From positions 1 to 28,173 of the IMG/VR virus record IMGVR_UViG_3300012953_000162: a stretch of DNA of 28,173 bases; one strand, written 5' to 3'. The position numbers and the translations under genes were made by a program. Below are positions 1,825 through 25,889 of the stretch, in pieces; position 1 is the first letter of the stretch; each line of letters opens with the position of its first letter. Source of the stretch: a virus (taxonomy: Duplodnaviria; Caudoviricetes). The notes below the pieces were generated by a model that saw only the letters and a list, made by a program, of their open reading frames with translations, was not told the DNA's origin and did no database searches.

Positions 1825-2238
1825 ATGTTAGACATTCATGAACTTAGGGTACTTAGCGGTTTGACTCAAACTTATTTCGGAAAATCTTCTATTAGAGAAG
1901 GAGGCCATGCAATTGCATACAAAATTTTGAACCATTGTGATGAAGGTCACGTTCTTGAGATTAGATATGAAACTTTGGTGAATATAAACTCTAGAGAAGG
2001 AATACAGACTGCTCAAGACGATGAAGACAAGAAGTCAAAGAAAGCAATAACAGAAAAAGTATCAGAGCTCAAGCAAGAGTTCAAAGAAGTTGCAGGTAGA
2101 GCACTGAAAATTAAAGAATTCAAAAGTGAGAGATCCGGTCAACAACCACTAAGAGAATCATTCTTAGAAGTTATTTCTTTTAATCCTTCATTGTTGCGTG
2201 GAAAGTATTATAGAACATTGCAATTTCACGTTGAATAA
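1825..2238 (+). CDS. Hypothetical protein upstream of terminase
   Basis: AGGAGA SD at 1814-1819; TAATG stop/start overlap with terL. Confidence 0.8.
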   Translation: MLDIHELRVLSGLTQTYFGKSSIREGGHAIAYKILNHCDEGHVLEIRYETLVNINSREGIQTAQDDEDKKSKKAITEKVSELKQEFKEVAGRALKIKEFKSERSGQQPLRESFLEVISFNPSLLRGKYYRTLQFHVE

Positions 2239-3818
2239 TGGCTGCAGTACGAAATAACAAGCAGAAGCAGATCAAAGAAATCATCAAGTGTGGTAAAGAT
2301 CCGACGTATTTCTTCAATAGGTATGTAAAGATACAGCATCCAATCAAAGGATCGATACCTTTTAAGACATATCCGTTTCAAGATGACTGCGTCGATGACT
2401 TTAGAGCAAATCGATTTAATATCGTTCTAAAATCACGACAACTGGGTCTTTCTACGATTACAGCTGCTTATGCTATGTGGATGGTGTTATTTCATAAAGA
2501 TAAGAATGTTCTTGTCATTGCAACCAAATTAGCAGTGGCACAGAACTTTATTAGAAAGTGCAAATTCTTATTGGCTTCGTGCCCTAAGTGGTTAATTCTT
2601 CCACAAATTGTGAAGAATAACTCGCAAGCATTAGAGTTCAACAATGGTTCACAAATCAAAGCGATACCAACATCTGAAGATGCGGGTCGTTCTGAAGCGT
2701 TGTCACTCTTGATTGTGGATGAGGCTGCTTTTGTAAGAAACTTTGATATGTTGTGGACAGGATTATATCCAACACTATCGACTGGTGGAGAAGCAATTAT
2801 CTTATCAACTCCAAATGGTGTAGGTGGACAGTATTACGATCTCTGGGTTTATGCTCAAAAGGGTGAGAATGTTTTCAACCCGATAAAACTACCTTGGGAT
2901 GTACACCCTGACAGAGATGACACTTGGTTCGAGCAAGAAACCAAAAATATGTCCCAAAAACAGATAGCCCAAGAGCTTCTGTGTGACTTTGCAGCTTCAG
3001 GCGAAACATTCTTAAGAGTAGAAGACATTGAATATATCAGAGATTGGATCAGACAACCAATTGACAGATGGGGCCCCGATATGGGTGTTTGGGTGTGGGA
3101 CTATCCACTTGGTGAAAAGAAATATGTGATCTCCGCTGACGTCTCTCGAGGAGATGCTGGAGATTATTCGACTTTTCATGTAATAGATACAGAGGCTTCA
3201 CAAATAGTCGCAGAATACCAAGGGAAATTACCACCTGATAGGTTTGCTCAATTGTTAGCCGAAGCTGGAAAAAGATATAACGATGCAGTCATGTGTCCAG
3301 AGAACAATTCGTATGGCTACGCTGTTATTATGAAATTAAATGAACTAGATTATCGTAACATGTATTTCCAAAATGAAAGAGATCGATATAATTACATGTA
3401 CGGCAATAAAGACATTGCTAAAATCGGGTTTCAGACTAATTCTAAAACTCGAGCACAGATACTGACGAAATTGGAAGAAGTGTTGAGAACCAAACAAGTG
3501 AAAATTCGTTCCAGTCGGTTATATGAAGAGCTTAAAACCTTCGTATGGAAGAATGGAAAAGCACAAGCAATGAAAGGCCAAAATGACGACCTGATCATGG
3601 CTCTTGCGATAGGTGTTTGGCTTTATGATACCTCTCCCCAATTATCAAAAACTGGTACAGATATTAATAAAGCAATGCTAGCAGCATTCGCGGTCAACAC
3701 AACGCCGGTCGAAGATACAGTAGTTGATCAGAACATGAATAAAATACAACACCAAAGAAAAAGAGTTGTATTTCCGGGTTCTCGATCTCCTCACAACGAT
3801 TTTGATTGGCTAAAATAA
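2238..3818 (+). CDS. terL: Terminase large subunit (T4 gp17-like)
   Basis: Adenine-binding YPFQ, Walker A VLKSRQLGLST, Walker B LLIVDEAAF, coupling motif STPNG, RNase H-like nuclease ADVSRGDAGDYS ... NDDLIMALA. Confidence 0.97.
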   Translation: MAAVRNNKQKQIKEIIKCGKDPTYFFNRYVKIQHPIKGSIPFKTYPFQDDCVDDFRANRFNIVLKSRQLGLSTITAAYAMWMVLFHKDKNVLVIATKLAVAQNFIRKCKFLLASCPKWLILPQIVKNNSQALEFNNGSQIKAIPTSEDAGRSEALSLLIVDEAAFVRNFDMLWTGLYPTLSTGGEAIILSTPNGVGGQYYDLWVYAQKGENVFNPIKLPWDVHPDRDDTWFEQETKNMSQKQIAQELLCDFAASGETFLRVEDIEYIRDWIRQPIDRWGPDMGVWVWDYPLGEKKYVISADVSRGDAGDYSTFHVIDTEASQIVAEYQGKLPPDRFAQLLAEAGKRYNDAVMCPENNSYGYAVIMKLNELDYRNMYFQNERDRYNYMYGNKDIAKIGFQTNSKTRAQILTKLEEVLRTKQVKIRSSRLYEELKTFVWKNGKAQAMKGQNDDLIMALAIGVWLYDTSPQLSKTGTDINKAMLAAFAVNTTPVEDTVVDQNMNKIQHQRKRVVFPGSRSPHNDFDWLK

Positions 3819-3859: not shown

Positions 3860-5902
3860 ATGGCAGAAAGAAAAACACCAGACAACTTGTTTCAGAGACT
3901 TACGAAACTGTTTCGATCCGGACCTAGCATCAAACGCAAGGTTAAGAACTATACGAAGGCTGAAAAGAATGCTTCTAGCGCCGTTGAGCTTTTCAAAAAA
4001 GCTCATTCAGATGTGTACAATAGCACTCTTTCTGCTTATGGGACTTTTGACCGCATGGCTCGGTATAGTGATTTTTCTGAGATGGAATCTACCCCCGAAA
4101 TTGCTAGCGCCTTGGACATCTACGCAGAAGAGTCCTGTTCCCAAGACGCCGAAGGAAGAGTATTACACATCCATTCAAACAATCGAAAAGTAAAAGAGCT
4201 ATTAGAGACCCTATTCTATGATACTTTGAACATCAATTTCAATATGGTGATGTGGACACGAAATCTCTGTAAATACGGAGACTTTTTCTTATTTAATGAT
4301 ATATCTCCCGAATTTGGTGTTATCAATGCGTATCCCGTTCCCATCACAGAGATGGAAAGAGAAGAAGGATACGATTCTAATGATCCAAGCGCAGTAAGAT
4401 TCAGATGGATTAGTCAAGGCAATACAATATTAGAAAATTGGCAAGTGTCACACTTTCGACTCTTGGGCAATGATGCATTCTTGCCGTATGGTTCTTCTGT
4501 GTTAGAAGCAGCACGTAGAATATGGCGACAGTTAATTCTAATCGAAGATGCAATGATGGTATATCGTGTTATACGTTCGCCTGAAAGAAGGGTGTTCTAT
4601 ATCGATGTGGGTAACGTTCCTCCCGAAGATGTTGCAAACTATGTAGAGCAGGCCAAGAATTCTTTGAAAGTCAATAAAGTTGTAGGTGGCCAAAAAGGAA
4701 ACGTAGACTTACGATACAATCCTATGGCAGTCGATGAAGATTATTTCATACCGGTTAGAGGTGGTGATACAGGGACACGTATAGACTCACTCTCTGGCGG
4801 CCAAAATACTAGTGCGATAGAGGATGTTGAATATATACAGAAGAAACTATTTGCTGCCCTTAAGATACCGAAAGCATATCTAGGTTACGATGAAGAAGTA
4901 GGTTCGAAAGCTACATTAGCTCAAGAAGATATTCGATTCAGTCGATCTATTGCTCGTATTCAGAAAACAATCATCGCAGAATTAAATAAGTTAGCAATGA
5001 TTCATCTATATGCGCACGGCTTCGATGGTGAGGATATATTAGATTTTTCTTTATCTTTGTCGAATCCATCGTCATTAGCACAGCAGCAGAAATTGGCTTT
5101 GGTTGAACAAAAGTTTTCAATTGCCAGTGCTGCTCCCGAAGGCATGGTATCTAAAACGTGGATCTATCAAAACATCTTTGGTTTCAATAAAGATACGATT
5201 GAACAAATCCAATCTGATTTTATTAGAGAAAAATTAGAAGCTGCTGAAGTAGAAGGCGCCGGTGGTGATGGCGATGACGGAGGTGGTGGAGGAGACGATG
5301 CTGGCGGAGGCGGCCTATTTGACGTCGATGCACCTCAAGGTCAAATCTTAGATGGAGATAATGATCTGATAACTCCTCAGTTAGGTGAAGCAGACCTCTT
5401 AGAAGACGACGATGAAGATGAAGAATATATAGATCTAGAAAGAATATCATCTGTTGTCGGAGATGGTTCAATCAAAGCAGATGAAACGACCAAAGGTGTT
5501 TTTGGGAATAAACTCAAGCAACAGAATGATGGAGCTGTTAGATACGGCGCCGAAGAACTAAACATGCCTAATTTCAAATCTATGTTAAGCAATGACAGAC
5601 CACAAGATACAATGAATGATCCATACGATGCGAGCTGGATTAGAAACTGGGGTAAGAGAAAGCAGATGGAGTCTAGCCACCAAAAACTCGCGGATGTAAT
5701 TGCTGGCATGGATAGCGGCATCAAAGATATTATACCTCAAACGATACAACCATCAATGTCGTTTGATACACAGAAAATGTTAGAGAAAATGAATTCCAAG
5801 TTAGGCATACGAAGGTTAATGACAGAAAACAATAATTATGAAACATTGATCGAGGAATCATTTGATCTCGATTTTGAATTGGAGAATGACGATGACGAAT
5901 AG
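3860..5902 (+). CDS. Portal protein (T4 gp20-like) with acidic C-terminal extension
   Basis: Motifs PEIASALDIYAEE, LIEDAMMVYRVIRSPERRVFYIDVGNVP, EDYFIPVRGG, IEDVEYIQKKLFAALKIP; follows terL; GAGGT SD at 3847-3851. Confidence 0.96.
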   Translation: MAERKTPDNLFQRLTKLFRSGPSIKRKVKNYTKAEKNASSAVELFKKAHSDVYNSTLSAYGTFDRMARYSDFSEMESTPEIASALDIYAEESCSQDAEGRVLHIHSNNRKVKELLETLFYDTLNINFNMVMWTRNLCKYGDFFLFNDISPEFGVINAYPVPITEMEREEGYDSNDPSAVRFRWISQGNTILENWQVSHFRLLGNDAFLPYGSSVLEAARRIWRQLILIEDAMMVYRVIRSPERRVFYIDVGNVPPEDVANYVEQAKNSLKVNKVVGGQKGNVDLRYNPMAVDEDYFIPVRGGDTGTRIDSLSGGQNTSAIEDVEYIQKKLFAALKIPKAYLGYDEEVGSKATLAQEDIRFSRSIARIQKTIIAELNKLAMIHLYAHGFDGEDILDFSLSLSNPSSLAQQQKLALVEQKFSIASAAPEGMVSKTWIYQNIFGFNKDTIEQIQSDFIREKLEAAEVEGAGGDGDDGGGGGDDAGGGGLFDVDAPQGQILDGDNDLITPQLGEADLLEDDDEDEEYIDLERISSVVGDGSIKADETTKGVFGNKLKQQNDGAVRYGAEELNMPNFKSMLSNDRPQDTMNDPYDASWIRNWGKRKQMESSHQKLADVIAGMDSGIKDIIPQTIQPSMSFDTQKMLEKMNSKLGIRRLMTENNNYETLIEESFDLDFELENDDDE

Positions 5903-6734
5903 GTCCCACAACAAAAAAAGAAATGTCGGGATTATCTACGAGCAACTCCTTGCAGCAACAGCGAGAGGCATTGTAGAAAATAACCAAGCAATTACAACCC
6001 GTGCACAAACAATAATAAAGCGGTTCTATAAAGAGGGCACAGAAATATATAAAGAGCACAGATTATTCAAGGCAATAGTTGAACCACACATCAAAGATGG
6101 ATCACTTGCAACTAAAATTCTAGAAGAAGCTAAAAAAGCAGCAAGAACCCATAACGTGCAAAGACTAGAACGTGAAAAATCTAGAATGATCAAAGAAATA
6201 AATCATTCCTTTGGTAAGAATTTCTATTCCCAAAAAGTTAAAAATTATACAAATTTTGCAACAGTTCAAACTCTTTTGAATGATTGGAGACTTTGGAATA
6301 AAGCTGATTTCAATCGGGTTACGTTGTTTGAAAGTAAAGTACATAGCATCTTGTTGAGTCCAAAGCAAGATCCTAGCTTGCTGAAAGAGCACGACAAGGA
6401 AGTAGATAATTTAGTTGTCAAAGTCATGACTGAAAAATACAATGATAAATATGGAAAATCTCTGACCGAAGTTCAGCAAATGCTTATCAAGCAGTATGTT
6501 TTCGCTGAGAACGGAAATTCAACGGGCTTCAAGAATATGCTGAAAAGAATTAAAGAGACAGTTATCAGAGATCTTGTTGAGTACGAATTAGATTGTGACA
6601 ACAATCACGTTGCAAACAAAATTAACGAAGTTAAGAAAGATATAAATTCTTTAGACATAAATACTCTTGACGATAATACAATGACTCGTTTCCTGACATT
6701 GTGTGACCTGTCTGAAGAGCTGCGGAGAAAATAA
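5892..6734 (+). CDS. Hypothetical protein between portal and protease (putative prohead component)
   Basis: Start moved from 5862 to ATG 5892 because GGAGA at 5881-5885 has suitable spacing; helical-looking sequence starting MTNRSHNKKRNVGIIYEQLL. Confidence 0.8.
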   Translation: MTNRSHNKKRNVGIIYEQLLAATARGIVENNQAITTRAQTIIKRFYKEGTEIYKEHRLFKAIVEPHIKDGSLATKILEEAKKAARTHNVQRLEREKSRMIKEINHSFGKNFYSQKVKNYTNFATVQTLLNDWRLWNKADFNRVTLFESKVHSILLSPKQDPSLLKEHDKEVDNLVVKVMTEKYNDKYGKSLTEVQQMLIKQYVFAENGNSTGFKNMLKRIKETVIRDLVEYELDCDNNHVANKINEVKKDINSLDINTLDDNTMTRFLTLCDLSEELRRK

Positions 6735-6735
6735 T

Positions 6736-7347
6736 ATGAGCGCACTTAAATTAATAACAGAATGGTCTGCGTGGGAATACGATAAAGCTACTACCCTGAA
6801 AGAAGCTGCAGACAACGGTGGTCGATATATTATGCGAGGTATTCTGCAGAAAGCGAACACACTAAATCAGAACGGTCGAGTTTATCCGATGGACATTCTT
6901 GAACGAGAAGTACGAAACTATCAAAAGTTTATTGCAGAAAACAGAGCTCTTGGAGAGCTCGATCATCCCGATTCTTCAGTCGTAGAACTTAAAAATGCTT
7001 CGCACATTGTAAGAGAAGCATATATGCAAGGCGATGTATGTTACGGGTCAGTCGAGATCTTAGATACTCCTTCTGGTCAGATCCTAAAGTCTCTCGTAGA
7101 TTCGGGTGTTACATTGGGGATCTCGTCTAGAGGCGTTGGAAGCACTAGAAAAGAGGGCGACTATCAAGTCGTACAAGATGACTTCCAATTAATCTGTTGG
7201 GATTTTGTAACAGAACCAAGTACTCCCGGTGCTTTTATGATGAAGGAAGGAAAAGAAATAAATGAAACCGATCTGAAGCAACACTTTACTAAGAGCGACA
7301 GGATCGATAGAATATTCAATGATATAATTTCGTGGAGGAAAGAATAA
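6736..7347 (+). CDS. Prohead maturation protease (T4 gp21-like)
   Basis: NQNGRVYP, ALGELDHP, ASHIV, GISSRGVGS, WDFVTEPSTPGAF; start set at ATG 6736 with GGAGA SD at 6724-6728. Confidence 0.96.
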   Translation: MSALKLITEWSAWEYDKATTLKEAADNGGRYIMRGILQKANTLNQNGRVYPMDILEREVRNYQKFIAENRALGELDHPDSSVVELKNASHIVREAYMQGDVCYGSVEILDTPSGQILKSLVDSGVTLGISSRGVGSTRKEGDYQVVQDDFQLICWDFVTEPSTPGAFMMKEGKEINETDLKQHFTKSDRIDRIFNDIISWRKE

Positions 7348-9097: not shown

Positions 9098-9691
9098 ATG
9101 CAACAGTCAAAAGTTTCGATAGGGGGTGGTGGATTTCCTGCTTCGCATGGTGATTCTAGAAACGACTTGGGATATGGTCGTCTAAACCCGAAGTATCATA
9201 TCGAAAAACAACTTGGCAATCATTCTTACCCTTATAGAGATCAAGATGAAGATCTAGATCATGTTGAAACCTTCGTCGACGAAGACGAAGAAGAAGCAAT
9301 TTGGGATCGTATGACTCCTCCGTCTGGTTACGACCATGCTGGAGGACATTACGACCCCTTTTCTTTTGCGGGCTCAAACACGACCCTCTCTGGTCCAGCA
9401 CACATCGGTGAAACCTTTGCAAAAAATTCGATGGTTCCTTTCCCGACAATGCATAAAAATCGTGGACAATCAGCTGTAGGCGGAACTAGGGTTGGTACTG
9501 CTAGAGGTGATGGAAGTACGATGTCAGCGACAATGGATACAGGGGATCGCTGGGGATGGAGTAATCCCGTCTATAAAGAAATTGATACAGATTCTGAAAA
9601 CGAGTATAATTACACTTTAGAGGACATCGCACAAGATGAAGAAGATGCCCTAAGAGAATGTATACGCCTAATATTATTGAGGGAACTATGA
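9098..9691 (+). CDS. Hypothetical low-complexity protein
   Basis: Starts 2 nt after the previous stop; C-terminal LRECIRLILLRE motif; ATGA overlap with the next gene. Confidence 0.75.
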   Translation: MQQSKVSIGGGGFPASHGDSRNDLGYGRLNPKYHIEKQLGNHSYPYRDQDEDLDHVETFVDEDEEEAIWDRMTPPSGYDHAGGHYDPFSFAGSNTTLSGPAHIGETFAKNSMVPFPTMHKNRGQSAVGGTRVGTARGDGSTMSATMDTGDRWGWSNPVYKEIDTDSENEYNYTLEDIAQDEEDALRECIRLILLREL

Positions 9692-9912
9692 GCAAAGGCT
9701 GCAACTTTTCTGTAAAAAGAAATCCAAGATTAGCTAACAAGAAGTCTAACGAGGAACAGAATCTGATTTTAATTAAGAAGTTTATGAAAAAATGGAAATT
9801 ATCCGGCATTCAGAAAGAGCTTAAAGAGAAATCATTTCCACAAACTCGCGGGATGAAATCGAGAAAAAAGCGATACCTCGGAAAAAGAAGGAATAATCGC
9901 AAACAAAGCTGA
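9688..9912 (+). CDS. rpsU: Divergent ribosomal protein bS21-like protein (74 aa)
   Basis: LIKKFMKKWKLSGIQKELKEKSF aligns without gaps to E. coli bS21 [23 protein letters not shown], followed by a basic C-terminal helix. Size, charge and position near head genes fit. Start at ATG 9688 (GAGGGA SD, ATGA overlap). Confidence 0.62.
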   Translation: MSKGCNFSVKRNPRLANKKSNEEQNLILIKKFMKKWKLSGIQKELKEKSFPQTRGMKSRKKRYLGKRRNNRKQS

Positions 9913-9966
9913 TAATTAACAAGTGAAGTTTAAGTTTAATTATATTAACGACAGGGAGTACCATAG

Positions 9967-11688
9967 ATGAGTAGTTTATATAAAGACGCCATTGCCGATG
10001 CCCGTAAATTAAGAGAAACTGCGGAGCAGAGCGCTAAAAATCGTATTATTGAAGCGGTTACTCCAAAGCTAAGAAATTTAATTGAAAGGCAAATAGCAGA
10101 AGGAGGAGACGATTTACTAGACGATGCTCTAGAATCAAGTCTTCTTGATACACCCGATGCACTGGATCTACTAGATGATGAAGAGCCAATGCCGGAGCCG
10201 GAATTAGAACCAATGGAAACGATGGAAGAACCTATGAGTGTTGACTCGGATGGGCTTGCATCTATTGAAGTGATACCAGACGACGATGATGATGCTTCCA
10301 TCGAAGATGAGTCACAAAACAAATCAGTTCATGTGAATATAACCGTCGAAGCAAAAAATAAAAAGTTGCAGAGACGAGCTATTCGTTTAGTTAAAGCATT
10401 AAGTGAGGCAAAATCAAACCCTCAGCGTAAAAAAATACGCAAACAATTGAGGATTTTACGACGTGCCCTTATAATTACAGAAAACAGCCAGAACAAACGA
10501 CTGGCAAAAAACCTATCAGTTATCTTAAAGGAGAGTAATGATATGAGAAGACGTAGAAATAGCTGGTTGTTCGAAGGTGGAGAACCTGAGGGCGGCAGCG
10601 ACGTGGAATTCGATGATATGGATTTCGATGACAGTGATGATGGCGACGCCGATGCCGGAGAAGAAAGCGGTGGAAAAATTGAAGTAGATGCTTCTGCTCT
10701 CGAAGATGCACTAGGATTAGATCCGGGTACACTTTCAGATGCTGGTTCAGACGACGATGACGATGATGATGACCTCGACTTGGATATGGATGACGATGAT
10801 GCCGATGACGGAGACGACGACGTAGACTTAGGTGAGTCTGACGAAATGGGTGATGAAACTTATGAGTCAATGGGCGACGAATCTGATGAGCTCGATCAAT
10901 GCGAATCCGATGAAATGGGCGACGAAGTTGTCGAAGTTAATGAAGCAATGCTTCGAAGAGCTTTAAGGTCTACAAAGAGAAGACGACAAACAAATCGTTC
11001 TTCTAGACGAGTTAATGAAACTCGCAGACGAAGAATTGCAAGAGCACGCAGACGCAGACAATTACGTGAAGGCGAAGCAAAAGCAATGGCTTCTTCTTTC
11101 GGTGGCGGAAAAGCTGGAAAGGATATGTTCGTTGAAGTTGATGAGAATACACTCCTTAATGCGCTTGCAGAAGAATTAGGTCAATCACCTGCTCCTTCTA
11201 AGAAAATGGGATCTGCTAAAGCTAAAGCTTCTGCTTTTGGCGGTGGATCAATCAAGAGCGGTGCAGTTATGGAAGCTCGTAAGCATCGTCGAACAAAAAG
11301 AGTCCTTGCAGAAACAAAGCGTAAAGCTAATGTAATTGCTCGCAAGGCTCATGCTGCAAAAGCAGAACTTAAAGAATCTAATTTATTCAATGCAAAATTG
11401 TTGTATGTAACCAAATTGATGCAACAGCATGATCTAAACAACAAGCAGCAGCGTGCTATTATCGAGGCGATGGACAATGCCAAGACTCAACGCGAAGCCA
11501 AGTTGCTTTTCACCTCATTGAACGAGTCTTTGAATAAGCGTAAGCTTAATGAAAGCAAGAAAGCGAAAGCTACAATCAATGAATCAAGAACTTCTTATTC
11601 TAACAGATCACTTCAGTCGGGCCAGGCAGCTCGCGGAAATGGAGTTGAGTTGGATCGTTGGGCTGTTCTTGCTGGTATCAAAAAATAA
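9967..11688 (+). CDS. Prohead scaffold/core protein (positional equivalent of T4 gp22)
   Basis: Immediately upstream of the MCP; helical termini (AIADARKLRETAEQ; LKESNLFNAKLLY...RWAVLAGIKK), disordered charged middle, many L/I-x-E sites. Confidence 0.75.
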   Translation: MSSLYKDAIADARKLRETAEQSAKNRIIEAVTPKLRNLIERQIAEGGDDLLDDALESSLLDTPDALDLLDDEEPMPEPELEPMETMEEPMSVDSDGLASIEVIPDDDDDASIEDESQNKSVHVNITVEAKNKKLQRRAIRLVKALSEAKSNPQRKKIRKQLRILRRALIITENSQNKRLAKNLSVILKESNDMRRRRNSWLFEGGEPEGGSDVEFDDMDFDDSDDGDADAGEESGGKIEVDASALEDALGLDPGTLSDAGSDDDDDDDDLDLDMDDDDADDGDDDVDLGESDEMGDETYESMGDESDELDQCESDEMGDEVVEVNEAMLRRALRSTKRRRQTNRSSRRVNETRRRRIARARRRRQLREGEAKAMASSFGGGKAGKDMFVEVDENTLLNALAEELGQSPAPSKKMGSAKAKASAFGGGSIKSGAVMEARKHRRTKRVLAETKRKANVIARKAHAAKAELKESNLFNAKLLYVTKLMQQHDLNNKQQRAIIEAMDNAKTQREAKLLFTSLNESLNKRKLNESKKAKATINESRTSYSNRSLQSGQAARGNGVELDRWAVLAGIKK

Positions 11689-11720: not shown

Positions 11721-12347
11721 ATGTCTTTTACAATGAAAACTTTGACCGAAGGAATCCGCCAGCGTCACATGGGTGCTCAGCATCAACGATTGACTGAAAA
11801 GTGGAACCGAACCGGTCTTCTTCGTGGCCTTAATGGTTATAGTCGCGAAAACATGGCAGTTATGCTTGAAAACCAAGCTGCTCAATTACTTAGAGAAACT
11901 AACTCACTTGGAACATCTTCCGGTGGAGCTGGTGACATTCGAGGATTCTCCAATGTTGCATTCCCAATCGTTCGTCGTGTATTCGGTGGATTGGTTGCTA
12001 ACGAACTTGTTTCTATCCAACCAATGAGCCTTCCTTCTGGACTTCTATTCTACCTCGATTACACTTACGGTAACGATGTTGGCGGTCTTGACGGTGATGG
12101 AGCATCTTCTTCTGATGGTTCTGTATCTTCTACATACGAAGCTGGCGATTCTATCTATAACAACCCTAGCGGTAAAGGTATCCAATCTGGATCTCTTGGA
12201 AAAGGCGGTCAATACGATCTTCTTGGCTCTGGTTACTCTAGACGACACGATTACGCAGTTGTAATTCAACAATTAAGCACTGCTCCTGAGAGTATGACAG
12301 GTCTGGTGTTGTTTCAATCACTACTGCTGGTATTGCTGACGAACTAA
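11721..12347 (+). CDS. Major capsid protein (T4 gp23-like), N-terminal part; real coding in this frame probably ends near 12300
   Basis: AGGAGA SD; MAVMLENQA, AFPIVRRVFGGLVANELVSIQPMSLPSGLLFYLDYTY are gp23-family motifs; strong codon bias up to about 12300. Confidence 0.93.
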   Translation: MSFTMKTLTEGIRQRHMGAQHQRLTEKWNRTGLLRGLNGYSRENMAVMLENQAAQLLRETNSLGTSSGGAGDIRGFSNVAFPIVRRVFGGLVANELVSIQPMSLPSGLLFYLDYTYGNDVGGLDGDGASSSDGSVSSTYEAGDSIYNNPSGKGIQSGSLGKGGQYDLLGSGYSRRHDYAVVIQQLSTAPESMTGLVLFQSLLLVLLTN

Positions 12348-13744
12348 GTGGACACCCAACTCTTTCTTCAACTGAAGGTCACACATCTTTGACAGGTGCT
12401 GTTGGTCGTCTTGTTGACTTTGATGCGGAAATTGCTTCGTATCTTTCAGACAACAGTGGTTCTACCCTTCAGTTCGCTATCTGTGCTGTGAGTGCACTTC
12501 AATCAAGTGTCTCAGCTGTCAGTACTCTTTCACCAAACTCTGGTTTAGCACCTGATTTTACAATGATCAACGATTTCGTAGTTGTTGCTCCTGACACAAC
12601 AGCCATCACTGGTGGAAGTAATGCAGTTGCATCAACCGGTTCTGCTGCACTTGATACTATTCCTGCTTCTTTACAGTCAGGAACAAATCTTAAGTCGCTT
12701 CGTAGACATACTAAGCGAGTTGACATTGCTTCTGGTGGTAAGGTAACTGTTAATCCATTGGGTGGAGCTTTCATCTTGTTCCCATTCATCGCAGGGTCTG
12801 GTACTGCAGACTTAGATGCTGATGGTTCAACTGTTGCTTGGGCTATTTCTTACCCAGTTGCTTCTAAATTGGATACATCTGATTCTAACGGTGCAACTCT
12901 TACAATTCCTTCTTTCGAAGCTACAGGAAAAGATGGATCTGATCCAGATGCTTCTCCTGTTATTCCAGAAATCGACATCAAAATCGAATCTCTTGCTGTA
13001 ACAGCTGTTTCTCGTAAGTTGAAAGCTAAGTGGTCTCCAGAGCTTGCTCAAGATCTTAACGCTTACCACTCGCTTGATGCTGAAGTTGAATTGACTCAAA
13101 TCCTTTCTGAGCAAATTGCTCTTGAATTGGATCGTGAAGTTCTTAATGACCTTCTTACTCAAGCTAACGGCGCTAACCTTTACTGGTCACGTGCTCCTGG
13201 AAAGTTTGTCAACAAGCTTACCGGTGTTGAAGTTGCTCGCAACTCTTCATTGCGCCCAGGACCTCAGTTCACTGGTACAGTTCGTGATTGGTACGAAACT
13301 CTTGTTGAAACCATCATCGATGCTGCTAACATCATTCACAGAAAAACCCTTCGTGGTTCTGCGAACTTTATCGTTATCGGCCCAGATGTTGCTACAATCT
13401 TTGAGTCAAGCGTTATGTACAAGCCTTCTTACTCTATCGATGGTGAAGGACAAGCTTCTGCACTTTCAATCGGTGCTGAGAAGATTGGAAATCTTTCTAA
13501 CAGATTCACTGTTTACAAAGATCCTTACTTCCCACGTAACAAAGTACTTGTCGGATACAAAGGTGGTTCATACCTCGAGACTGGATACGTCTATGCTCCA
13601 TATGTTCCATTGATTGTTACTCCTACAATCTTCGCTCCAGAGGACTTCACCCCAAGAAAAGGTGTTATGACTCGTTACGGAAAGAAGATGGTTCGATCTG
13701 ACTTCTACGGTACAGTAACTTGTATGGATATGAACATCATCTAA
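12290..13744 (+). CDS. Major capsid protein (T4 gp23-like), C-terminal part, in the -1 frame
   Basis: Frame open from 12290 (after TGA 12287-12289). IPEIDIKIE, SRKLKAKWSPELAQDLNAYHSLDAEVELT, VYKDPY, VGYKG, GYVYAPYVPL, FTPRKGVMTRYG. Confidence 0.95.
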   Translation, partial: EYDRSGVVSITTAGIADELSGHPTLSSTEGHTSLTGAVGRLVDFDAEIASYLSDNSGSTLQFAICAVSALQSSVSAVSTLSPNSGLAPDFTMINDFVVVAPDTTAITGGSNAVASTGSAALDTIPASLQSGTNLKSLRRHTKRVDIASGGKVTVNPLGGAFILFPFIAGSGTADLDADGSTVAWAISYPVASKLDTSDSNGATLTIPSFEATGKDGSDPDASPVIPEIDIKIESLAVTAVSRKLKAKWSPELAQDLNAYHSLDAEVELTQILSEQIALELDREVLNDLLTQANGANLYWSRAPGKFVNKLTGVEVARNSSLRPGPQFTGTVRDWYETLVETIIDAANIIHRKTLRGSANFIVIGPDVATIFESSVMYKPSYSIDGEGQASALSIGAEKIGNLSNRFTVYKDPYFPRNKVLVGYKGGSYLETGYVYAPYVPLIVTPTIFAPEDFTPRKGVMTRYGKKMVRSDFYGTVTCMDMNII

Positions 13745-15034: not shown

Positions 15035-15379
15035 ATGGCAGTTTCAAAAAAGGCAGCATCTTCTAAAGCTGCACCCAAAGCAAGTTCGGATGATTGCGCT
15101 AAGTGCGATGCCAAAATCGAAGCTTTGGAAAAGAAAGTAGCAGACTTAGAAAGCAAGCTCAGCGGAGTCTTAGCCTCAGTTAGTGCACTCGCTCAAGTAA
15201 AAAGTGACTTAGATGATGCAAAGTCTAAGATTGGTGCAGAAATGCAAGAGCTTAAAGAAAAAGCAAAGTCTTGGAAAGAAAAAGCAGACACAAATAGCGA
15301 TGGTAAATTAGATTTTGAAGAGATTTATTCTTATGTATTTCGAAGAATGAAAAGCAGAAATGCAAAGCCTAGACAGTAA
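15035..15379 (+). CDS. Coiled-coil protein with a C-terminal EF-hand motif
   Basis: AGGAGA SD; heptads IEALEKKVADLESKL; loop DTNSDGKLDFEE between predicted helices. Confidence 0.8.
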   Translation: MAVSKKAASSKAAPKASSDDCAKCDAKIEALEKKVADLESKLSGVLASVSALAQVKSDLDDAKSKIGAEMQELKEKAKSWKEKADTNSDGKLDFEEIYSYVFRRMKSRNAKPRQ

Positions 15380-18702: not shown

Positions 18703-21700
18703 ATGGCTGAAAACACATTCAAATCACCCGGCTTCTTCGAGCAAGAAATCGAGTTGACAGCAGAAAAGCAGGAACCGACTGGGGTACCAGCTGGTATCAT
18801 AGGAGCGGCCCAAATGGGACCCGCGTTCGTACCATTGACATTAGGTACATTCACAGACTTTGAAAATAGATTTGGAACTCTAACTCCAGAAAAGTTTGCA
18901 CCATACGCTGTAAGAGAATGGCTAAAGAATAGACAATCTGTAACTTTCATGAGAGTCCTCGGAGCTGGAGCAAACTCTACATCTGCAGACTTTACAAAAA
19001 CAAGACAGTATGGATCTGCTAAAAATGCTGGTTTCAAAGCGATCGACAAAGGATCACAAACAGACAGTAAATACATAGGAGCCACCCAGTTCTTGACTGC
19101 GAACCATGTTATATCTGCAAACTCAGATATTGGTTTTCCAATCTTTACAGACAACCAAACTTGGTCAAGTACGACATCTGAAGGAACTGGCACTCCAACA
19201 GTCGATGAGATAAATGTTTGTAGAGCAATGATCTTAAATGCTTCTGGATCATTCTTTCAGTTATTAGCTCATGATCAGACTACTACCTACAACGACAACC
19301 TCGGTTGCGCTACTAACGTTAATAGTTCAAACGAATTCAAGATGAAGTTGGTACTTGGAGATGGAACAGCTGCAGAACTATCTTCTTTCGGCAATGACGC
19401 TTCTACTACCTTTGCCTCAGATTCTAGACCAAACAAGATCTTCACGGTATCTTTAGATCCTGACAATGTAAACTACATCGGTAAAGTGTTGAATACAGAT
19501 CCAAAGAAGTTTCAAGAAGAAGGACATATCCTTTGGTTAGACTTTGCAATCGAGCATGAATTAGCACCTGTAGCCACCGGCGCTGGCGAAAACAACGTGT
19601 ATTTATCTAGAGGGGCTGACAACGATACTGGCCTTTCAGACACTTTCACTTCTAGTTTCTCTGGAGTCAAGTGGAGAGATGTTTTCGGCTGGTTCAATGC
19701 GAGGTATCAAGCCCCGAAAACTACTGCATTCATCTCACAACCTTTTGGAAATGTAGAATACGACTTATTCCACTTCGAGTGCATGTCAGATGGTGCTGTT
19801 GCAAATAACGAATTTAAAGTCAGTATTTCTAACATAAAGAAATCAACTGATCCAAATTACCCATACGGAACATTCAACGTTCAAGTTCGAAAGTTTGCTG
19901 ATTCTGATTTCCAACCACAAATCTTAGAGACTTTCGTAGAGTGTAGTTTAGATCCAGCTTCAGAAAGCTTTATCGCTAGAAAAATTGGAGATAAAAAAGT
20001 TATCTTCGACTTTGATGCAGATCTTGAAGATGAAAGAAGACTAGTTATTTCTGGTCGCTATCCAAATCAATCGCTTAATATTAGAGTCGTGATGAACGAT
20101 GCTGTATATCGGGGGGAAGTTCCTAAAGAAGCGGTTCCGTTTGGCTTCCACGGTATACCCGTAACGAATATTTATGGCCACCTTGCAAATGCAACGGCTG
20201 GAGCAGCATATCTGCCGCCGATGCCTTATGTTTTCAAGGCTACAAAAGGCCTGATAAAAAGTGAAGGCTATTCTTTCTTAGGAGATGCCGGAGACAATGA
20301 AAGATCTGATGCAAGAATCTACTTTGGAGTTAAGACTACTCGAATTGTCGACAATACTGTAGCATCAAACGGACTACTACAGCCAAATCTCTCTGGGCTG
20401 TCGTCTGATTTGGTAAAAGCGTACACTAAGTTCCAAGGCATCCCTGGCGGAACAGTCGACATTGGAACAAAGACATCTGGAACTTGGGGAACTGCTTCAC
20501 AAACAGGCGCTGATGACTTTAATGACAATAAGTTCACATTGGCACGAGTTGCTTTCGGAGTTGACACTACTGACTTGACTAAACCAGCCGCAACAACAGC
20601 AAATCCAACACCTTCAATATACGACGATGCAACTAACTTTGGTTCTTCTACTGCACTTATGAAAAGTGCATGCTATATTAGAAACGGTACTCCTGATCCG
20701 AGCGACTATACGATAGCAGATAGATTCGATACTTCCAACTACGGAAATCGACCTACTTTTGCATCTATTATACATGACCACAGGGCCAACAACTTCAATA
20801 AGTTTTCTAAGTATATGAAATTCACCAATGTATTCCACGGTGGATGGGACGGCCTCAATGTTCTTGATGGTGACATAGAAGACTTAAATGATAAATCAGC
20901 TTCAACTGAGTCTGGTGGAAAAGCTGCACTTACAACTGGCGGCTTAGGACTACAAGGAACTAAAGACGGTGATTCAGCATCATTGATCATGAGCGGCTTG
21001 GGCAAAGACAACAACGTAATATCTTCGTACCGACAATCAATCAAGATCATGACAGACCCAATGGCTGTAAAGCATAACATTCTTACAATCCCAGGAGTTA
21101 GAGATCCTTACGTGACTGACTTTGCTGCAGGCTTAGTGAGAGATTACTCTATGGCAATGTATGTGATGGATATTCCAAACTACAATGGCGATCAGATTCG
21201 AATCTTTGATACTGGATCTCGTCCAGATGTTGAATATACAGCTAATTCTTTAGAAGGAAGAGCTATTAACAACAACTACGTTGCTTCATACTTCCCAGAT
21301 GTATTCATCACTGATCCGATCAACAATCGAAGAGTACTTGTTCCTGCATCCGTAGCGGCGATTGGAGCGTTAAGCTATAACGACAACGTAAGTTATCCTT
21401 GGTTCGCACCTGCTGGTTTTAATAGAGGTGCTCTCGACTTCGTAGAGAACGTAAGAACTAGACTTTCAGTAAGTGATAGAGACGATTTGTATGAAAGACG
21501 AATTAATCCAATCGCAAACTTCCCTAACGGCGGTTTTGTGATCTTTGGCCAGAAAACAATGCAGATCAATCAATCAGCGTTGGATAGAGTCAATGTAAGA
21601 AGACTGTTGCTTGAAGTTAAGCGACAAGTGAGCGAAGTTGCGAATGTTGTGCTGTTCGAGATGAATAACGCTCAAACCCGTGCACGTTTTGTAAATCTGG

Positions 21701-21897
21701 TCCAACCAAGGTTGGCGTTAATTCAAGCACAAGCGGGAATTGAAAAATTCCGAGTGATCTGCGATGATACAAATAATACGCCTCAGGACGCAGAAGAAAA
21801 TAAATTAAATGGTAAGATCGTACTGATACCGACAAGAACAATCGAATTTATTGCGATTGACTTCATCGTAACAAATGCTGGAGTTTCTTTCGAGTAA
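18703..21897 (+). CDS. Tail sheath protein, paralog 1 (T4 gp18-like)
   Basis: SPGFFEQEIELT...GPAFVP...FG N-terminus; PWFAPAGFNRG, INPIANFP, FGQKT...SALDRVNVRRLL, PTRTIEFIAIDF C-terminus. Confidence 0.95.
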   Translation: MAENTFKSPGFFEQEIELTAEKQEPTGVPAGIIGAAQMGPAFVPLTLGTFTDFENRFGTLTPEKFAPYAVREWLKNRQSVTFMRVLGAGANSTSADFTKTRQYGSAKNAGFKAIDKGSQTDSKYIGATQFLTANHVISANSDIGFPIFTDNQTWSSTTSEGTGTPTVDEINVCRAMILNASGSFFQLLAHDQTTTYNDNLGCATNVNSSNEFKMKLVLGDGTAAELSSFGNDASTTFASDSRPNKIFTVSLDPDNVNYIGKVLNTDPKKFQEEGHILWLDFAIEHELAPVATGAGENNVYLSRGADNDTGLSDTFTSSFSGVKWRDVFGWFNARYQAPKTTAFISQPFGNVEYDLFHFECMSDGAVANNEFKVSISNIKKSTDPNYPYGTFNVQVRKFADSDFQPQILETFVECSLDPASESFIARKIGDKKVIFDFDADLEDERRLVISGRYPNQSLNIRVVMNDAVYRGEVPKEAVPFGFHGIPVTNIYGHLANATAGAAYLPPMPYVFKATKGLIKSEGYSFLGDAGDNERSDARIYFGVKTTRIVDNTVASNGLLQPNLSGLSSDLVKAYTKFQGIPGGTVDIGTKTSGTWGTASQTGADDFNDNKFTLARVAFGVDTTDLTKPAATTANPTPSIYDDATNFGSSTALMKSACYIRNGTPDPSDYTIADRFDTSNYGNRPTFASIIHDHRANNFNKFSKYMKFTNVFHGGWDGLNVLDGDIEDLNDKSASTESGGKAALTTGGLGLQGTKDGDSASLIMSGLGKDNNVISSYRQSIKIMTDPMAVKHNILTIPGVRDPYVTDFAAGLVRDYSMAMYVMDIPNYNGDQIRIFDTGSRPDVEYTANSLEGRAINNNYVASYFPDVFITDPINNRRVLVPASVAAIGALSYNDNVSYPWFAPAGFNRGALDFVENVRTRLSVSDRDDLYERRINPIANFPNGGFVIFGQKTMQINQSALDRVNVRRLLLEVKRQVSEVANVVLFEMNNAQTRARFVNLVQPRLALIQAQAGIEKFRVICDDTNNTPQDAEENKLNGKIVLIPTRTIEFIAIDFIVTNAGVSFE

Positions 21898-21941: not shown

Positions 21942-24900
21942 ATGGCAGAAGTAGTAATAGGAAGCCCCGGCGTAACCACGAGAGAGTTAGATCTCTCGGC
22001 CCCCGGAGTTGTGCGACCACAAGGCATCCCGGCCGGAGTTATTGGAACTTCGCAGAAAGGACCAGCTTTCGTCCCTGTGAATTTCGCTACTGTAAATGAC
22101 TTTGCAAATCTGTTCGGTGCAACAGAAGGCAAGCATTTCGGGGCGATGGCAGTGAACGAATGGATGCGAACATCTCGGAGCGGTATATTTATCAGAACTC
22201 TTGGAGTTGGCGATGCAAAAAAAGCTGACTCTTATGGAGTCACAACAAATGCAGGATTCGTAGTTGGATCTAAAATGAGGGACAAAGACAATGTAGCGGG
22301 TGCTGCTCAAGAAACGGATGGTGCAGCTTACGGTCTGCTTGCAAACCCTTATGCAGGTGACGCAGTACCAGATGCAATAACAAAAACAGTTTCAGAAGCT
22401 GGTACAGTAGCTGTCACTCATGATGCAGAGGAAGCGGTTATAATCACAGTCGAAGATGGTGCAGATAATGATCCATCAGCTGCATTCGCAGGTACGGAAC
22501 GTGATGATTTCGACGGATATTATGCGGTGGTTCAGAACCAGCAGGACAGTCTTGCTCACGTATTTTTCTTGTCGTCACAATCAGGACGATCACTGAATAC
22601 TGCAACAGTGGGTAGAGTCGTAAAAGACGGTACATATACTGTCAAAGACTTTTCGTCAATAGCAGGAAGCAATGGAGTACTCCAAACAGTTCACATTGTA
22701 GATATATCTGCACAAGGAACTGCTAACGCAGTTGCAACTACATTAGCGGCCGCCATCAATGGAGTCACTGGTCTTACTTCTTCAGCAACGACCAATAGTG
22801 TTTCTATTACTCAGGGTGCTGAAGGAGCAGGTACATTCACAAGGCTCACCGGAGCTACAGGGGTTACCACTGTTGAAGCATACGACAGAGATGATGTTGT
22901 AGCGTCTGCACAAGTTCCTGTAAGTGCTTCTACTGCAATTGGTGTTACAGCTGTTTCCGGTGTCAACACGACCATGACGCTTACAGCGGATGCTACAGAT
23001 CAAATAGCAGTTGGTTCAACTATCGTTGTACGTACACCGGATGGGGTTAATCACACGATTACTGTTGTTGCTTCTGGTGGTGACGACACAGCCGATTTTG
23101 ATCAGCCGGCCGCAGGAAATGCAACAGCAACAGCAATTGCAACTTGTATGCATAAAATATCTGGAGTTTCAGCAGTTGCATCCAGTGCTGATGTTGCTGT
23201 AACCCTCACAGCTGGCACAAATGGTCAAGTGTTGCCTACAGTTACGATCACAGAAAATTCTCCTGGTGCTCCAATGGGAAGAACACACTTCCTTGGGTGT
23301 AAGATGAAAGTTGCCAACAATGATCAAGACTATCTTGGAATTGCAGCTGCTTCAACCGAGAATATCTTGCGTGGAGTGATTATGTTCGCTTCAGGTGTTA
23401 TTCCAGGGCTTTATCTAGGATCTAATATTGGCTCAAGTGATATGCCGGCATCATCATACGGTGGCGTATATGCATCAGGTAAAGATCAGGGTGATAGGAA
23501 AGGAGACTTAGATGCATCTGGCATATTCAAGATGGTACTCAATGGTTTCACTAACACTACAAACTACAATGCGCACTTGACTGGTTCATTCGATCCAACA
23601 TCTCCAATCTATTTCCCAAGAGTTCTTAATACTGATCCAACTAAGATACAGGAGCGTGGACATTACCTATACGCACACTACGATGTTCCTGCAGGTTTAG
23701 CTATCCATACTGGTACTACTGATTCTGTTTTCTTGACACCTGGTGCACACGACCACAATAGTGGTGATTGGGCAACAGCTAGCAGTACTTACCAGCCAAC
23801 ATACGAAAACTGGAAACAAAAGTTCACGCATGCTAGCACACCTTGGATTATGTCACAAACTCTTGGAACTGCGCCAAAGAAACTCTTTAAGTTTCATATG
23901 TTAGACGCAGGTTCTTCTGGCCAAGGTCAAGTCAAGATCTCTATCGCTAACATTCAGAAATCAACTGATCCTAAAAGTGCATACGGAAAGTTCGATGTAC
24001 AAATTCGAAGAGTTAACGATTTAGATTCAGCACCGGTTATTCTTCAATCTTTCTCCGGTGTGAACTTAAATCCTTCATCTGATCGTTACATTGCAAGAGT
24101 GATTGGTGACCAAAACACTTTCTACGAATTTGAAAAGAACCCGGGCAAGCAAAAGCTAGTCACAGAAGGCTTGTATCCAAATAAATCTCAATATGTGAGA
24201 GTACAAGTTGTAGACCAAGTTGAGTCTGGCGCAATGGAAGCAACTGCATTACCAATCGCATTTGCTGGAAAACATCACTTAGTACTCAATGGAGATTCTC
24301 TTGCCGGTGACGCTGGTGCTTCATACGTCGCTGGAGCTATTGAATTAAAAGAGCCTCCACTACCATTTAGACAAAGTGTCTCTATCGGTCAAGGAAATAC
24401 CAAAGTTGTAGATCCTCGATTCTACTGGGGCCTTCAAATCCAGAATGTTCGAGATAGAAACGAGAGAAACCGAGGAACAGGCATTACTTCTTTAGCTGAG
24501 AATCTTACAAAGCATTTTCCAACTGTTGGTGAGTATCCTCAATGGGTAGGAGACAATAGAAATGCTGCACAAGGCTCAGGATCTGCAGATTTGAATGCTG
24601 ATACATACAATAACAACTTCTTCTCACTAGAGAGAATCTTGGTGCGCTGCAAAAACAGTGATACTGCTAATGCAGTTGATCCTAAAATGTGGCACGAAGC
24701 GATCTATGTTAGGGACGGAAATGCTGACTTCTATCAACCGGATGGTGCATCACTTTGGGAGTCTGTTGAAACTGGATCTGGTGAAAATGACAAACATAAA
24801 GACGCAGCGAACCACTATCGTTATCTAGACGTTGCAAAAGACTTTGCAGAATCTGCTTCTAAAAGGTTCTATAAGTTCACTGTGCCAATGCAAGGTGGGT

Positions 24901-25889
24901 TTGACGGATTAGACATCTTCGACAAAGACAAGTCTGATATGAGCAATCTTGCAGCCTTCCGTGAAATGTCATCGAATACATCTTCCACTCTTGGAGGTCC
25001 AGATGGACCAACAACAGCAGGCTTTAGAAAAGCGATTGACATTCTTGCAGAAAAATCTGATGTAGATATACAGTTATTAGCAATCCCAGGAATGAGAGAT
25101 GCTGGCATCACTGATTACGCTATTGACAAAACAGAGGAAAGGTTCGATGCTCTCTATATCATGGATATGCCTGCATACGATCATGACCTCAATCTTGTCA
25201 CATCAACAACTCAAGAAACTTCTGTTACAAACACAGCCCAAACTCTAGTTAATAGAAACTTGGATACTTCGTTTGCAGCAACATATTTCCCTGATCTTGT
25301 TGTGCAAGATGGAAACACTAATGTGGTTGCTCCATCTTCTGTAGCTGTCCTCGGTGCAATGAGCTTGAATGATTCTGTTGCTCATCCTTGGTACGCTCCA
25401 GCTGGTTTTGCTCGTGGAGCTTTGACTTCAACGATAGAAGCATCTGTTTTCTTGAACAGACCAAATATGGATGTGCTTTACAATGCTGACATCAACCCAA
25501 TCACTTCATTCCCTAACAGTGGCGAATCCGTCGTTATCTTCGGACAAAAAACTATGCTGCAAGCTCAGTCTGCTTTGGATAGAGTGAACGTAAGGCGACT
25601 TCTTATCGATGTCAGAAGAAAAGTGAGAACAGTGGCTAACACCATTCTTTTCGAACCAAACAGGGAAAGTACTCTTGCACGATTCAGTGCGTTAGTTAAT
25701 CCAATCTTAGGACGTATTCAGCAACAACAAGGTTTAGATAGATACAAAGTGGTTATCGATACTACTACTACGACCCAACAAGATGTTGAAAACAATACAA
25801 TCCGAGGAAAGATATTCCTTCAGCCTACAAGATCTGTCGAATTCATATCACTTGACTTCGTCGTGACAAATGCTGGTGCGGAAATCTAA
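21942..25889 (+). CDS. Tail sheath protein, paralog 2 (T4 gp18-like) with a large N-proximal insertion
   Basis: SPGVTTRELDLS...KGPAFVP; PWYAPAGFARG, INPITSFP, FGQKT...SALDRVNVRRLL, LFEPN, PTRSVEFISLDF. Confidence 0.95.
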   Translation: MAEVVIGSPGVTTRELDLSAPGVVRPQGIPAGVIGTSQKGPAFVPVNFATVNDFANLFGATEGKHFGAMAVNEWMRTSRSGIFIRTLGVGDAKKADSYGVTTNAGFVVGSKMRDKDNVAGAAQETDGAAYGLLANPYAGDAVPDAITKTVSEAGTVAVTHDAEEAVIITVEDGADNDPSAAFAGTERDDFDGYYAVVQNQQDSLAHVFFLSSQSGRSLNTATVGRVVKDGTYTVKDFSSIAGSNGVLQTVHIVDISAQGTANAVATTLAAAINGVTGLTSSATTNSVSITQGAEGAGTFTRLTGATGVTTVEAYDRDDVVASAQVPVSASTAIGVTAVSGVNTTMTLTADATDQIAVGSTIVVRTPDGVNHTITVVASGGDDTADFDQPAAGNATATAIATCMHKISGVSAVASSADVAVTLTAGTNGQVLPTVTITENSPGAPMGRTHFLGCKMKVANNDQDYLGIAAASTENILRGVIMFASGVIPGLYLGSNIGSSDMPASSYGGVYASGKDQGDRKGDLDASGIFKMVLNGFTNTTNYNAHLTGSFDPTSPIYFPRVLNTDPTKIQERGHYLYAHYDVPAGLAIHTGTTDSVFLTPGAHDHNSGDWATASSTYQPTYENWKQKFTHASTPWIMSQTLGTAPKKLFKFHMLDAGSSGQGQVKISIANIQKSTDPKSAYGKFDVQIRRVNDLDSAPVILQSFSGVNLNPSSDRYIARVIGDQNTFYEFEKNPGKQKLVTEGLYPNKSQYVRVQVVDQVESGAMEATALPIAFAGKHHLVLNGDSLAGDAGASYVAGAIELKEPPLPFRQSVSIGQGNTKVVDPRFYWGLQIQNVRDRNERNRGTGITSLAENLTKHFPTVGEYPQWVGDNRNAAQGSGSADLNADTYNNNFFSLERILVRCKNSDTANAVDPKMWHEAIYVRDGNADFYQPDGASLWESVETGSGENDKHKDAANHYRYLDVAKDFAESASKRFYKFTVPMQGGFDGLDIFDKDKSDMSNLAAFREMSSNTSSTLGGPDGPTTAGFRKAIDILAEKSDVDIQLLAIPGMRDAGITDYAIDKTEERFDALYIMDMPAYDHDLNLVTSTTQETSVTNTAQTLVNRNLDTSFAATYFPDLVVQDGNTNVVAPSSVAVLGAMSLNDSVAHPWYAPAGFARGALTSTIEASVFLNRPNMDVLYNADINPITSFPNSGESVVIFGQKTMLQAQSALDRVNVRRLLIDVRRKVRTVANTILFEPNRESTLARFSALVNPILGRIQQQQGLDRYKVVIDTTTTTQQDVENNTIRGKIFLQPTRSVEFISLDFVVTNAGAEI

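Follow-up and report, generated by a model that had tools for sequence, protein, structure and literature searches.

Phage genes for ribosomal protein bS21 that lie beside capsid genes are already known, and several described systems can be set against the locus reported below. The freshwater Bacteroidetes phages of clades a-e (Chen et al. 2022, PMC9723584) are T4-like myoviruses of about 270-330 kb in which bS21 is encoded within a few genes of the terminase large subunit (TerL), portal, protease and capsid genes, a neighbourhood found in 388 of 900 published bS21 phages. Their bS21 gene and their structural genes lie on different strands, their hosts do not read Shine-Dalgarno (SD) sites, and the protein keeps Tyr54. 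The bS21 of Pelagibacter phage HTVC008M, an aquatic lytic phage, is 54% identical to that of its host and has been shown to be taken up into the 70S ribosomes of E. coli (Mizuno et al. 2019, PMC6375957). Large phages can also carry altered forms, such as the huge-phage rpS21 with its N-terminal extension, a proposed stand-in for the host's own protein (Al-Shayeb et al. 2020, PMC7162821). Bacterial bS21 itself (RpsU; PF01165, TIGR00030) has a short strand, a first helix with the pattern F-x7-G, a second helix starting with E, a hinge and a basic C-terminal helix.

The DNA analysed here, referred to as the window, is a stretch of 28,173 nucleotides from a Caudoviricetes record (IMGVR_UViG_3300012953_000162). 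A preliminary description had taken a small gene in it for a divergent bS21 and had pointed to the large-phage precedent. That precedent holds for the TerL, portal, protease and capsid neighbourhood, and related records reach 269-306 kb, a size range like that of the phages of Chen et al. The analogy with those phages fails on strand, on Tyr54 and on SD use: here the gene immediately precedes the scaffold gene and shares the strand of the structural genes, the latter in the window and in all 27 loci examined, the residue equivalent to Tyr54 is R67, and the phage is rich in SD sites. Unlike the bS21 of Chen et al., the protein also carries the pattern PxT[RK]G and an insertion of 7-10 amino acids, and it escapes Pfam. 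Purifying selection is common to this gene and that of HTVC008M, but here no cellular counterpart was detected and entry into ribosomes is a prediction. By alignment and predicted structure, the elements of bacterial bS21 listed above appear to be shared, whereas P-Q-T-R-G stands for Y-E-K-P-[ST], the spacer between strand and helix is longer, and the protein falls below every curated cut-off. Its extra residues are internal, between the strand and helix 1, and not N-terminal as in the rpS21 of Al-Shayeb et al. New here are a proline form bound to one clade, relatives with an empty slot, and a promoter-like element inside the upstream gene. The features concerned are these:

2238..3818, plus strand, terminase large subunit (PF03237, E 4e-15)
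3860..5902, plus strand, T4-like portal protein (PF07230, E 2e-75)
6736..7347, plus strand, prohead protease (Peptidase_S77 by Pfam; start placed by synteny)
9098..9691, plus strand, conserved hypothetical gene of 197 aa, the upstream gene (no family; also in relatives without bS21)
9582..9612, plus strand, putative internal promoter inside the upstream gene (ATAATTA and a sigma-70-like site)
9679..9683, plus strand, Shine-Dalgarno-like site GAGGG of the bS21-like gene (from sequence; duplex -6.1 kcal/mol)
9688..9912, plus strand, divergent bS21 (rpsU-like) gene, proline variant, 74 aa (from homology, selection and orthologs)
9912..9918, plus strand, second ATAATTA, a putative scaffold/capsid promoter at the stop of the bS21-like gene, 55 nt before the scaffold start
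9967..11688, plus strand, scaffold-like protein, 573 aa, acidic (from position and composition; no family match)
11721..13744, plus strand, major capsid protein Gp23 (Pfam Gp23 on both halves)

By its gene content the window is the virion module of a T4-like myovirus, because it holds TerL, a T4-like portal, an S77 protease and Gp23 and, downstream of the capsid gene, two sheath genes, a tube gene and baseplate genes. The best cultured match of TerL is in Flavobacterium phage immuto, at 42.6% identity. The Pfam scan of the protease ran from an upstream GTG at 6703. The bS21-like gene had been placed just before the scaffold and major capsid genes, and the open reading frames starting at 9967 and 11721 do follow it. 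In the window the Gp23 gene is divided into two open reading frames near 12302. A programmed frameshift was rejected, and the split is taken as a one-base assembly error because relatives have a single open reading frame and contigs of runs X1 and X4 have one extra base at this point. Six conserved genes without a family lie between portal and scaffold (5862, 7347, 7803, 8300, 8625 and 9098), most of them retained in relatives with and without bS21.

A small basic reading frame is indeed present at 9688..9912, with 25 K+R against 4 D+E over its 74 amino acids and a pI of 11.4 (about 12 in the C-terminal part), and the spacing reported for its core (F32-x7-G40-I41-x2-E44-L45-K46-x-K48-x-F50) is found as described. 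It is a real gene under purifying selection and not a chance reading frame, since a protein search returned 90 close homologs at 68% identity or more and dN/dS is 0.02-0.09 among seven close genes (17 of 21 pairs with measurable, unsaturated dS). Contigs of run X1, possibly the source sample, are identical to the window over 9586-10476. A run containing 90% of the window is recorded as a marine metagenome and may be its source. Many database entries use an alternative in-frame ATG at 9658, which would give 84 aa. This start was rejected in favour of 9688 because GAGGG precedes the latter, because the 10 extra residues vary between homologs, and because most distant orthologs begin at the equivalent position. 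Similar SD sites are present in most orthologs. The start lies on the stop of the upstream gene in an ATGA overlap (gap -4).

Searched alone, the protein matched no Pfam family at E<=1, no NCBIfam family at E<=10, and nothing in PHROGs or among PDB sequences. Because no family was matched, and the curated cut-offs of PF01165 and TIGR00030 were not reached, it is filed as a divergent homolog rather than as a cut-off member. Among GenBank phages the only match was to Agrobacterium phage Atu_ph07 at E 6, which is regarded as chance. The expectation that automated annotation could miss the gene was thus correct. Among the 90 close homologs, just 3 are called 'ribosomal protein S21' by JGI, and a precomputed Pfam domain is listed for none. 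A PF01165 search of four related records finds the gene above cut-off in one.

The homology becomes visible through relatives. TIGR00030 (S21p) is matched at E<=1 by 83 of the 90 close homologs (best 6e-5), while Pfam at the same threshold gives PBS_linker_poly in 47 and Ribosomal_S21 (PF01165) in 35. Against PDB, the close-homolog profile (A1) finds no bS21 and only the phycobilisome linker ApcE at E 0.14, and a wider profile finds two chains, both bS21 (E 0.047 and 0.66). An identity as PBS_linker_poly or ApcE was rejected, as it is gone from the PDB matches of wider profiles. An alignment of 20 syntenic proteins (the query and 19 of 27 loci, near-duplicates excluded) grades continuously from the query to Pfam-positive bS21 in the same slot. 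PF01165 is matched by 16 of the 20, four of them above its cut-off, and TIGR00030 by 18, five of them above; L011 and L012, proline variants 55-56% identical to the query, exceed the TIGR00030 cut-off. The profile built from these orthologs has 28 PDB matches, of which the top 25 are all bS21 (best E 1e-4). In a set of 1.84 billion proteins it has 185 matches, with PF01165 in 62 of the 70 scanned from 150 listed, and in the less-diverged group 112 of 120 listed matches carry precomputed PF01165 or rank between matches that do. A profile comparison, which had been suggested as a check, is therefore negative for the query alone and points to bS21 for the ortholog profile.

The core F-x7-G-[IV]-x2-[ED] and the basic C-terminal helix of bS21 are both present. 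F32 and G40 are invariant in alignments A1, A2 and A3 and retained in 131 and 132, respectively, of 144 distant matches of the ortholog profile, and F32, G40, I41, E44, R59 and K61 are invariant or nearly so. Judged by this homology, the gene is a phage copy of bS21, strongly diverged and conserved, as the preliminary description had proposed.

What sets the protein apart is found around its hinge and its spacer. When the ortholog profile is aligned with solved bS21 chains by HMMER, P51-Q52-T53-R54-G55 falls on Y-E-K-P-[ST], in agreement with the replacement of YEKP by PQTR reported earlier. The KP[ST] motif has been called conserved in bS21 by Jha et al. (PMC7797042); here the KP[S/T] hinge is absent and T53-R54-G55 stands instead. 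Among the 144 distant matches the hinge reads SKG in 29, KPS in 24, TKG in 15 and TRG in 8, so KP[ST] is not universal in the wider family, and by these counts the change from K-P to T/S-K/R-G is common in divergent bS21-like proteins and not specific to this clade. Proline at the Y/F position (51) occurs in only 6 of the 144. By alignment, then, the distinctive features of the clade are this proline and the longer spacer between strand and helix 1. The spacer measures 18 residues in the closest orthologs. All 23 proline-variant loci have 15-22, whereas 9 of 10 less-diverged orthologs have 11 (one unmeasured) and cell-type bS21 has about 8-10, a register-dependent figure. From these lengths the insertion comes to 7-10 residues.

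An insertion of about 10 residues in the N-terminal loop had been described. The insertion itself stands, but it is not loop alone, as part of it is modelled by AlphaFold2 as a lengthened helix 1 (21-39), with further helices at 41-47 and 54-64 and a pLDDT of 83. A Foldseek search of this model against PDB returned three rows, none at E<=0.001. VIA, run against 48,161 chains, gives ribosome chains U/u as its first four matches, and three of the four carry the name bS21; the bS21 chains score Z 3.3-3.7 with an rmsd of 5.6-7.1 over 56-63 residues and are tied with unrelated chains. At the other end of the protein, the residue equivalent to Bacteroidota Tyr54 is R67, which is non-aromatic (register of the solved chains; numbering of Jha et al., PMC7797042), and the C-terminus has the strongly basic character of bS21 from outside Bacteroidota. 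Positions 61-70 include 10 degenerate codons, of which 7 do not vary among the seven close genes, and the C-terminal invariance may come partly from overlapping DNA signals upstream of the scaffold promoter-like motif.

The distribution of the gene was sampled without selecting for it, by taking the best 80 of 559 protease matches in viral contigs. In 68 of these 80 the locus spans protease to scaffold or capsid, and 32 of the 68 carry the bS21-like gene. Among the 36 non-carriers, 30 can be measured, and in 28 of these the upstream gene ends less than 150 nt from the scaffold start, leaving an empty slot; that of L115 was confirmed by its list of open reading frames. The bS21-like gene is accordingly an accessory in a fixed slot and not an essential head part, because relatives build the same head module with the slot empty. 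A tree of the protease, with 69 distinct rows, has one branch (support 98/91) that sets all 21 proline variants and four rows of unknown state apart from 9 ET-type and 28 empty rows, whose own branching is unresolved. In this phylogeny the proline variant marks one phage branch; the tree is midpoint-rooted and so does not give the direction of change.

A cellular donor was sought in 185,579 species genomes. With the less-diverged alignment none was confirmed, in a pattern-seeded scan that does not imply absence. With the proline-variant alignment, one contig was found, L048 (NHDW01000006.1), in the metagenome-assembled genome 'Methylococcaceae bacterium TMED69'. This contig of 305,838 bases carries a bS21-like gene and has the size of these phages. 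It is probably a phage contig in a bacterial bin, and Methylococcaceae bacterium TMED69 was not accepted as the host.

The upstream gene appears to carry more than its own reading frame. The motif ATAATTA at 9606-9612, 82 nt before the bS21-like start, overlaps a sigma-70-like site at 9582-9610 (11 of 12 matches), and a second copy lies at the stop of the bS21-like gene; in orthologous loci similar motifs are found in the gap between this gene and the scaffold gene. On the plus strand of the window ATA[ACT]TTA occurs 16 times, and 11 copies (1798, 3829, 5832, 8264, 9606, 9912, 14991, 15548, 18667, 21899 and 26496) lie 27-89 nt before a start, with a binomial p of about 1e-10 that is inflated by AT-rich intergenic DNA. 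It is a candidate phage promoter motif before structural genes, and we take it to resemble a T4-type late promoter. Across G001, a relative whose genome is 96% complete, the motif is less clearly tied to starts than in the window: in the bin at 160-180 kb it precedes 9 of 18 starts, and in the others, with 9 to 40 starts each, it precedes 0 to 8.

Across 25 loci, the internal motif is found at -82 to -88 in the nine closest and at other distances in four, and it is absent within 130 nt upstream in the remaining 12. Within the upstream gene, codons 155-172 include 15 degenerate columns, and 12 of these keep the same codon in seven close sequences; elsewhere in the gene 10 of 84 do (Fisher p 2e-7, for a segment chosen after inspection and sequences that are related). 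This freezing of codons points to a dedicated promoter or another nucleotide-level element inside the upstream gene. Coupling to that gene, as first described, can therefore be kept as far as the 4-nt overlap goes, but the bS21-like gene has its own SD site and probably its own promoter besides.

RNA runs were assessed as contigs, from which neither the timing nor the level of expression can be read. In run X10, most of the gene is covered by three contigs from relatives, which are about 84-87% identical and span at least 9739-9932; since DNA can occur in RNA libraries, they hint only weakly at transcription. The gene is uncovered in runs X4, X12, X11, X14 and X19, which does not imply absence of expression.

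Initiation signals can give information on the host. An SD-like duplex below -3.5 kcal/mol precedes 21 of 25 starts in the window; in Flavobacterium phage immuto the count is 3 among 49 annotated starts. In G001 the share with an SD site is 72% for 264 constrained starts and 15% for 1118 internal ATGs; these sites are spread genome-wide, not restricted to the structural region. Between 20,000 and 40,000 of G001 they precede 35% of 20 starts, compared with 57-100% in the rest. Since both the window and G001 are rich in SD sites relative to the Flavobacterium phage, the host most likely reads these sites, unlike Bacteroidota. Like the huge phages of Al-Shayeb et al. (PMC7162821), G001 encodes a tmRNA (tag ending LAA; L033:3-355), tRNAs (three), a sigma-70-family factor, a peptide deformylase and a homolog of the CCA-adding enzyme. 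Further genes include glutamine synthetase II, GMP reductase, QueF, ClpS, a ClpP-like protein and sugar-nucleotide enzymes. No host marker was found by NCBIfam among 142 of about 369 called G001 proteins.

Taken with published work on bS21, these features make it reasonably probable that this phage bS21 is made late and seated on the platform of the host 30S subunit, where it would keep SD-led initiation going during capsid synthesis. Transcription would start from the internal promoter 82 nt upstream, with synthesis late in infection; phage bS21 is transcribed late in the systems of Chen et al. (PMC9723584). The N-terminal strand and helix 1 would dock on uS11, and the basic C-terminal helix would contact 16S rRNA. 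The phage protein would exchange with host bS21, which is loosely bound and exchangeable (Mizuno 2019, PMC6375957), and entry of a phage bS21 into E. coli 70S has precedent in the same work. The anti-SD tail would then be supported, as by bS21 in E. coli (PMC10491246), and SD-led initiation would be sustained while capsid proteins are made in bulk. Support is favoured over sequestration because the Tyr54 of Bacteroidota is absent and the C-terminus is very basic. Care must be taken with the last step, as E. coli ribosomes containing the pelagiphage bS21 kept only about 5% activity (PMC6375957), so that continued translation is a conjecture even for that case.

The protein was co-folded with E. 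coli uS11, a stand-in for the host partner in a textbook pair folded without rRNA. The pair scored 0.53, while none of three controls exceeded 0.00; at least 94% of the contacts agreed between runs, and the partner pLDDT was 62-63. Of 157 solved complexes 116 reach the mark used, as do 2 of 215 mismatches, but only 18 of those complexes and both mismatches do so at 0.60 or under, and the tool itself rates 0.53 as weak; the score may reflect likeness to solved ribosomes.

Other readings of the same protein can be weighed against this one. The phage variant could do more than maintain initiation: as the preliminary description had suggested, it might replace host bS21 and alter selectivity, so that the longer helix 1 and the altered hinge favour late phage mRNAs. 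Such a specialised ribosome would fit changes that are clade-wide and conserved (the 21 proline rows on one side of the 98/91 branch, each measured spacer 15-22 aa), it would fit the placement of the N-terminal helix over the mRNA path by Chen et al., who propose specificity there (PMC9723584), and loss or mutation of bS21 does shift mRNA selectivity in F. johnsoniae (PMC9976891). Yet no late-specific signal that such a ribosome could read was found, because the SD sites of G001 extend beyond the structural region, and we hold this switch to be unlikely though well worth keeping in mind. Alternatively, the protein may descend from bS21 but have left the ribosome altogether, and may now regulate the scaffold-capsid transcript by binding its RNA or be packaged in the head as a basic protein that binds nucleic acids. 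The lost YEKP hinge, the long insertion, the very basic sequence and the fixed slot beside scaffold and capsid genes are all in keeping with this, and bS21 has been reported in a non-ribosomal RNP (PMC12054373). We nevertheless find it distinctly improbable, as the ribosome-type core (F32, G40, I41, E44, R59, K61) is invariant or nearly so, divergence from Pfam-positive orthologs in the same slot is gradual, an empty slot does not keep related phages from building the same head module (28 of the 30 non-carriers that can be measured), and the uS11 co-fold, weak as its rating is, points the same way.

A host among the SD-blind Bacteroidota would call for yet another mechanism, in which a basic-tailed bS21 lacking Tyr54 displaces that of the host and frees the anti-SD so that the SD-rich phage mRNAs win. 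R67 at the Tyr54-equivalent position would suit this role, since loss of Tyr54 or of the C-terminus raises translation of strong-SD mRNAs 3- to 5-fold in F. johnsoniae (PMC9976891), and the best cultured terminase match is from a Flavobacterium phage, though only 42.6% identical. SD sites in G001 are found genome-wide, including regions read before any phage bS21 exists, and a true Flavobacterium phage has them at just 3 of 49 starts; a liberated anti-SD is thus very improbable. As for the protein being no bS21 at all but a short lysine-rich reading frame alike by composition, the failure of direct searches in Pfam, NCBIfam, PHROGs and PDB and the lead of PBS_linker_poly (47 of 90) over Ribosomal_S21 (35 of 90) would be its arguments. 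It is already contradicted by the unbroken syntenic chain of orthologs to bS21 that passes cut-offs and by the PF01165 content of the less-diverged group (112 of 120 listed matches, as defined above); the atlas neighbours, taken as a lead only, are S21 clusters at 0.86. We give it next to no credence. A phage bS21 that supports SD-led initiation on the host 30S subunit is thus the reading we prefer.

The locus offers a natural series in one slot: empty, occupied by Pfam-positive ET[KR]G forms, or occupied by the Pfam-negative proline form with its insertion. From this series one could learn what residues bS21 requires to bind 30S, and whether its phage forms alter mRNA choice in an SD-using host, opposite to Bacteroidota. 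Counts of phage ribosomal proteins that depend on Pfam are underestimates. It is conceivable, if rather doubtful, that a separate bS21 subfamily has evolved throughout a branch of large aquatic phages that use SD sites, and makes host ribosomes favour phage late mRNAs; its traits would be the proline hinge, the lengthened helix 1 and a dedicated promoter hidden in the upstream gene. In that event phage bS21 would be undercounted, as profile searches miss the subfamily, and the missing forms would include functionally reprogrammed ones. The literature searched shows no paper on the proline variant, although members of this lineage may be listed in supplements, such as the tables of bS21 phages compiled by Chen (900) and by Mizuno (1310).

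Some further features of the virion module can be recorded. A 114-aa coiled-coil protein encoded at 15035-15379, between the capsid and neck-like genes, is kept in several relatives and has a weak EF-hand match (E 9e-5, below cut-off). The two sheath genes (18703-21897 and 21942-25889) are in tandem and unusually long, at 1064 and 1315 aa, and each matches Phage_sheath_1C. In two relatives the portal reading frame is enlarged, to 923 aa (L009:3244-6015) and 1451 aa (L018:1796-6151) compared with about 675 in others, possibly by intein insertions.
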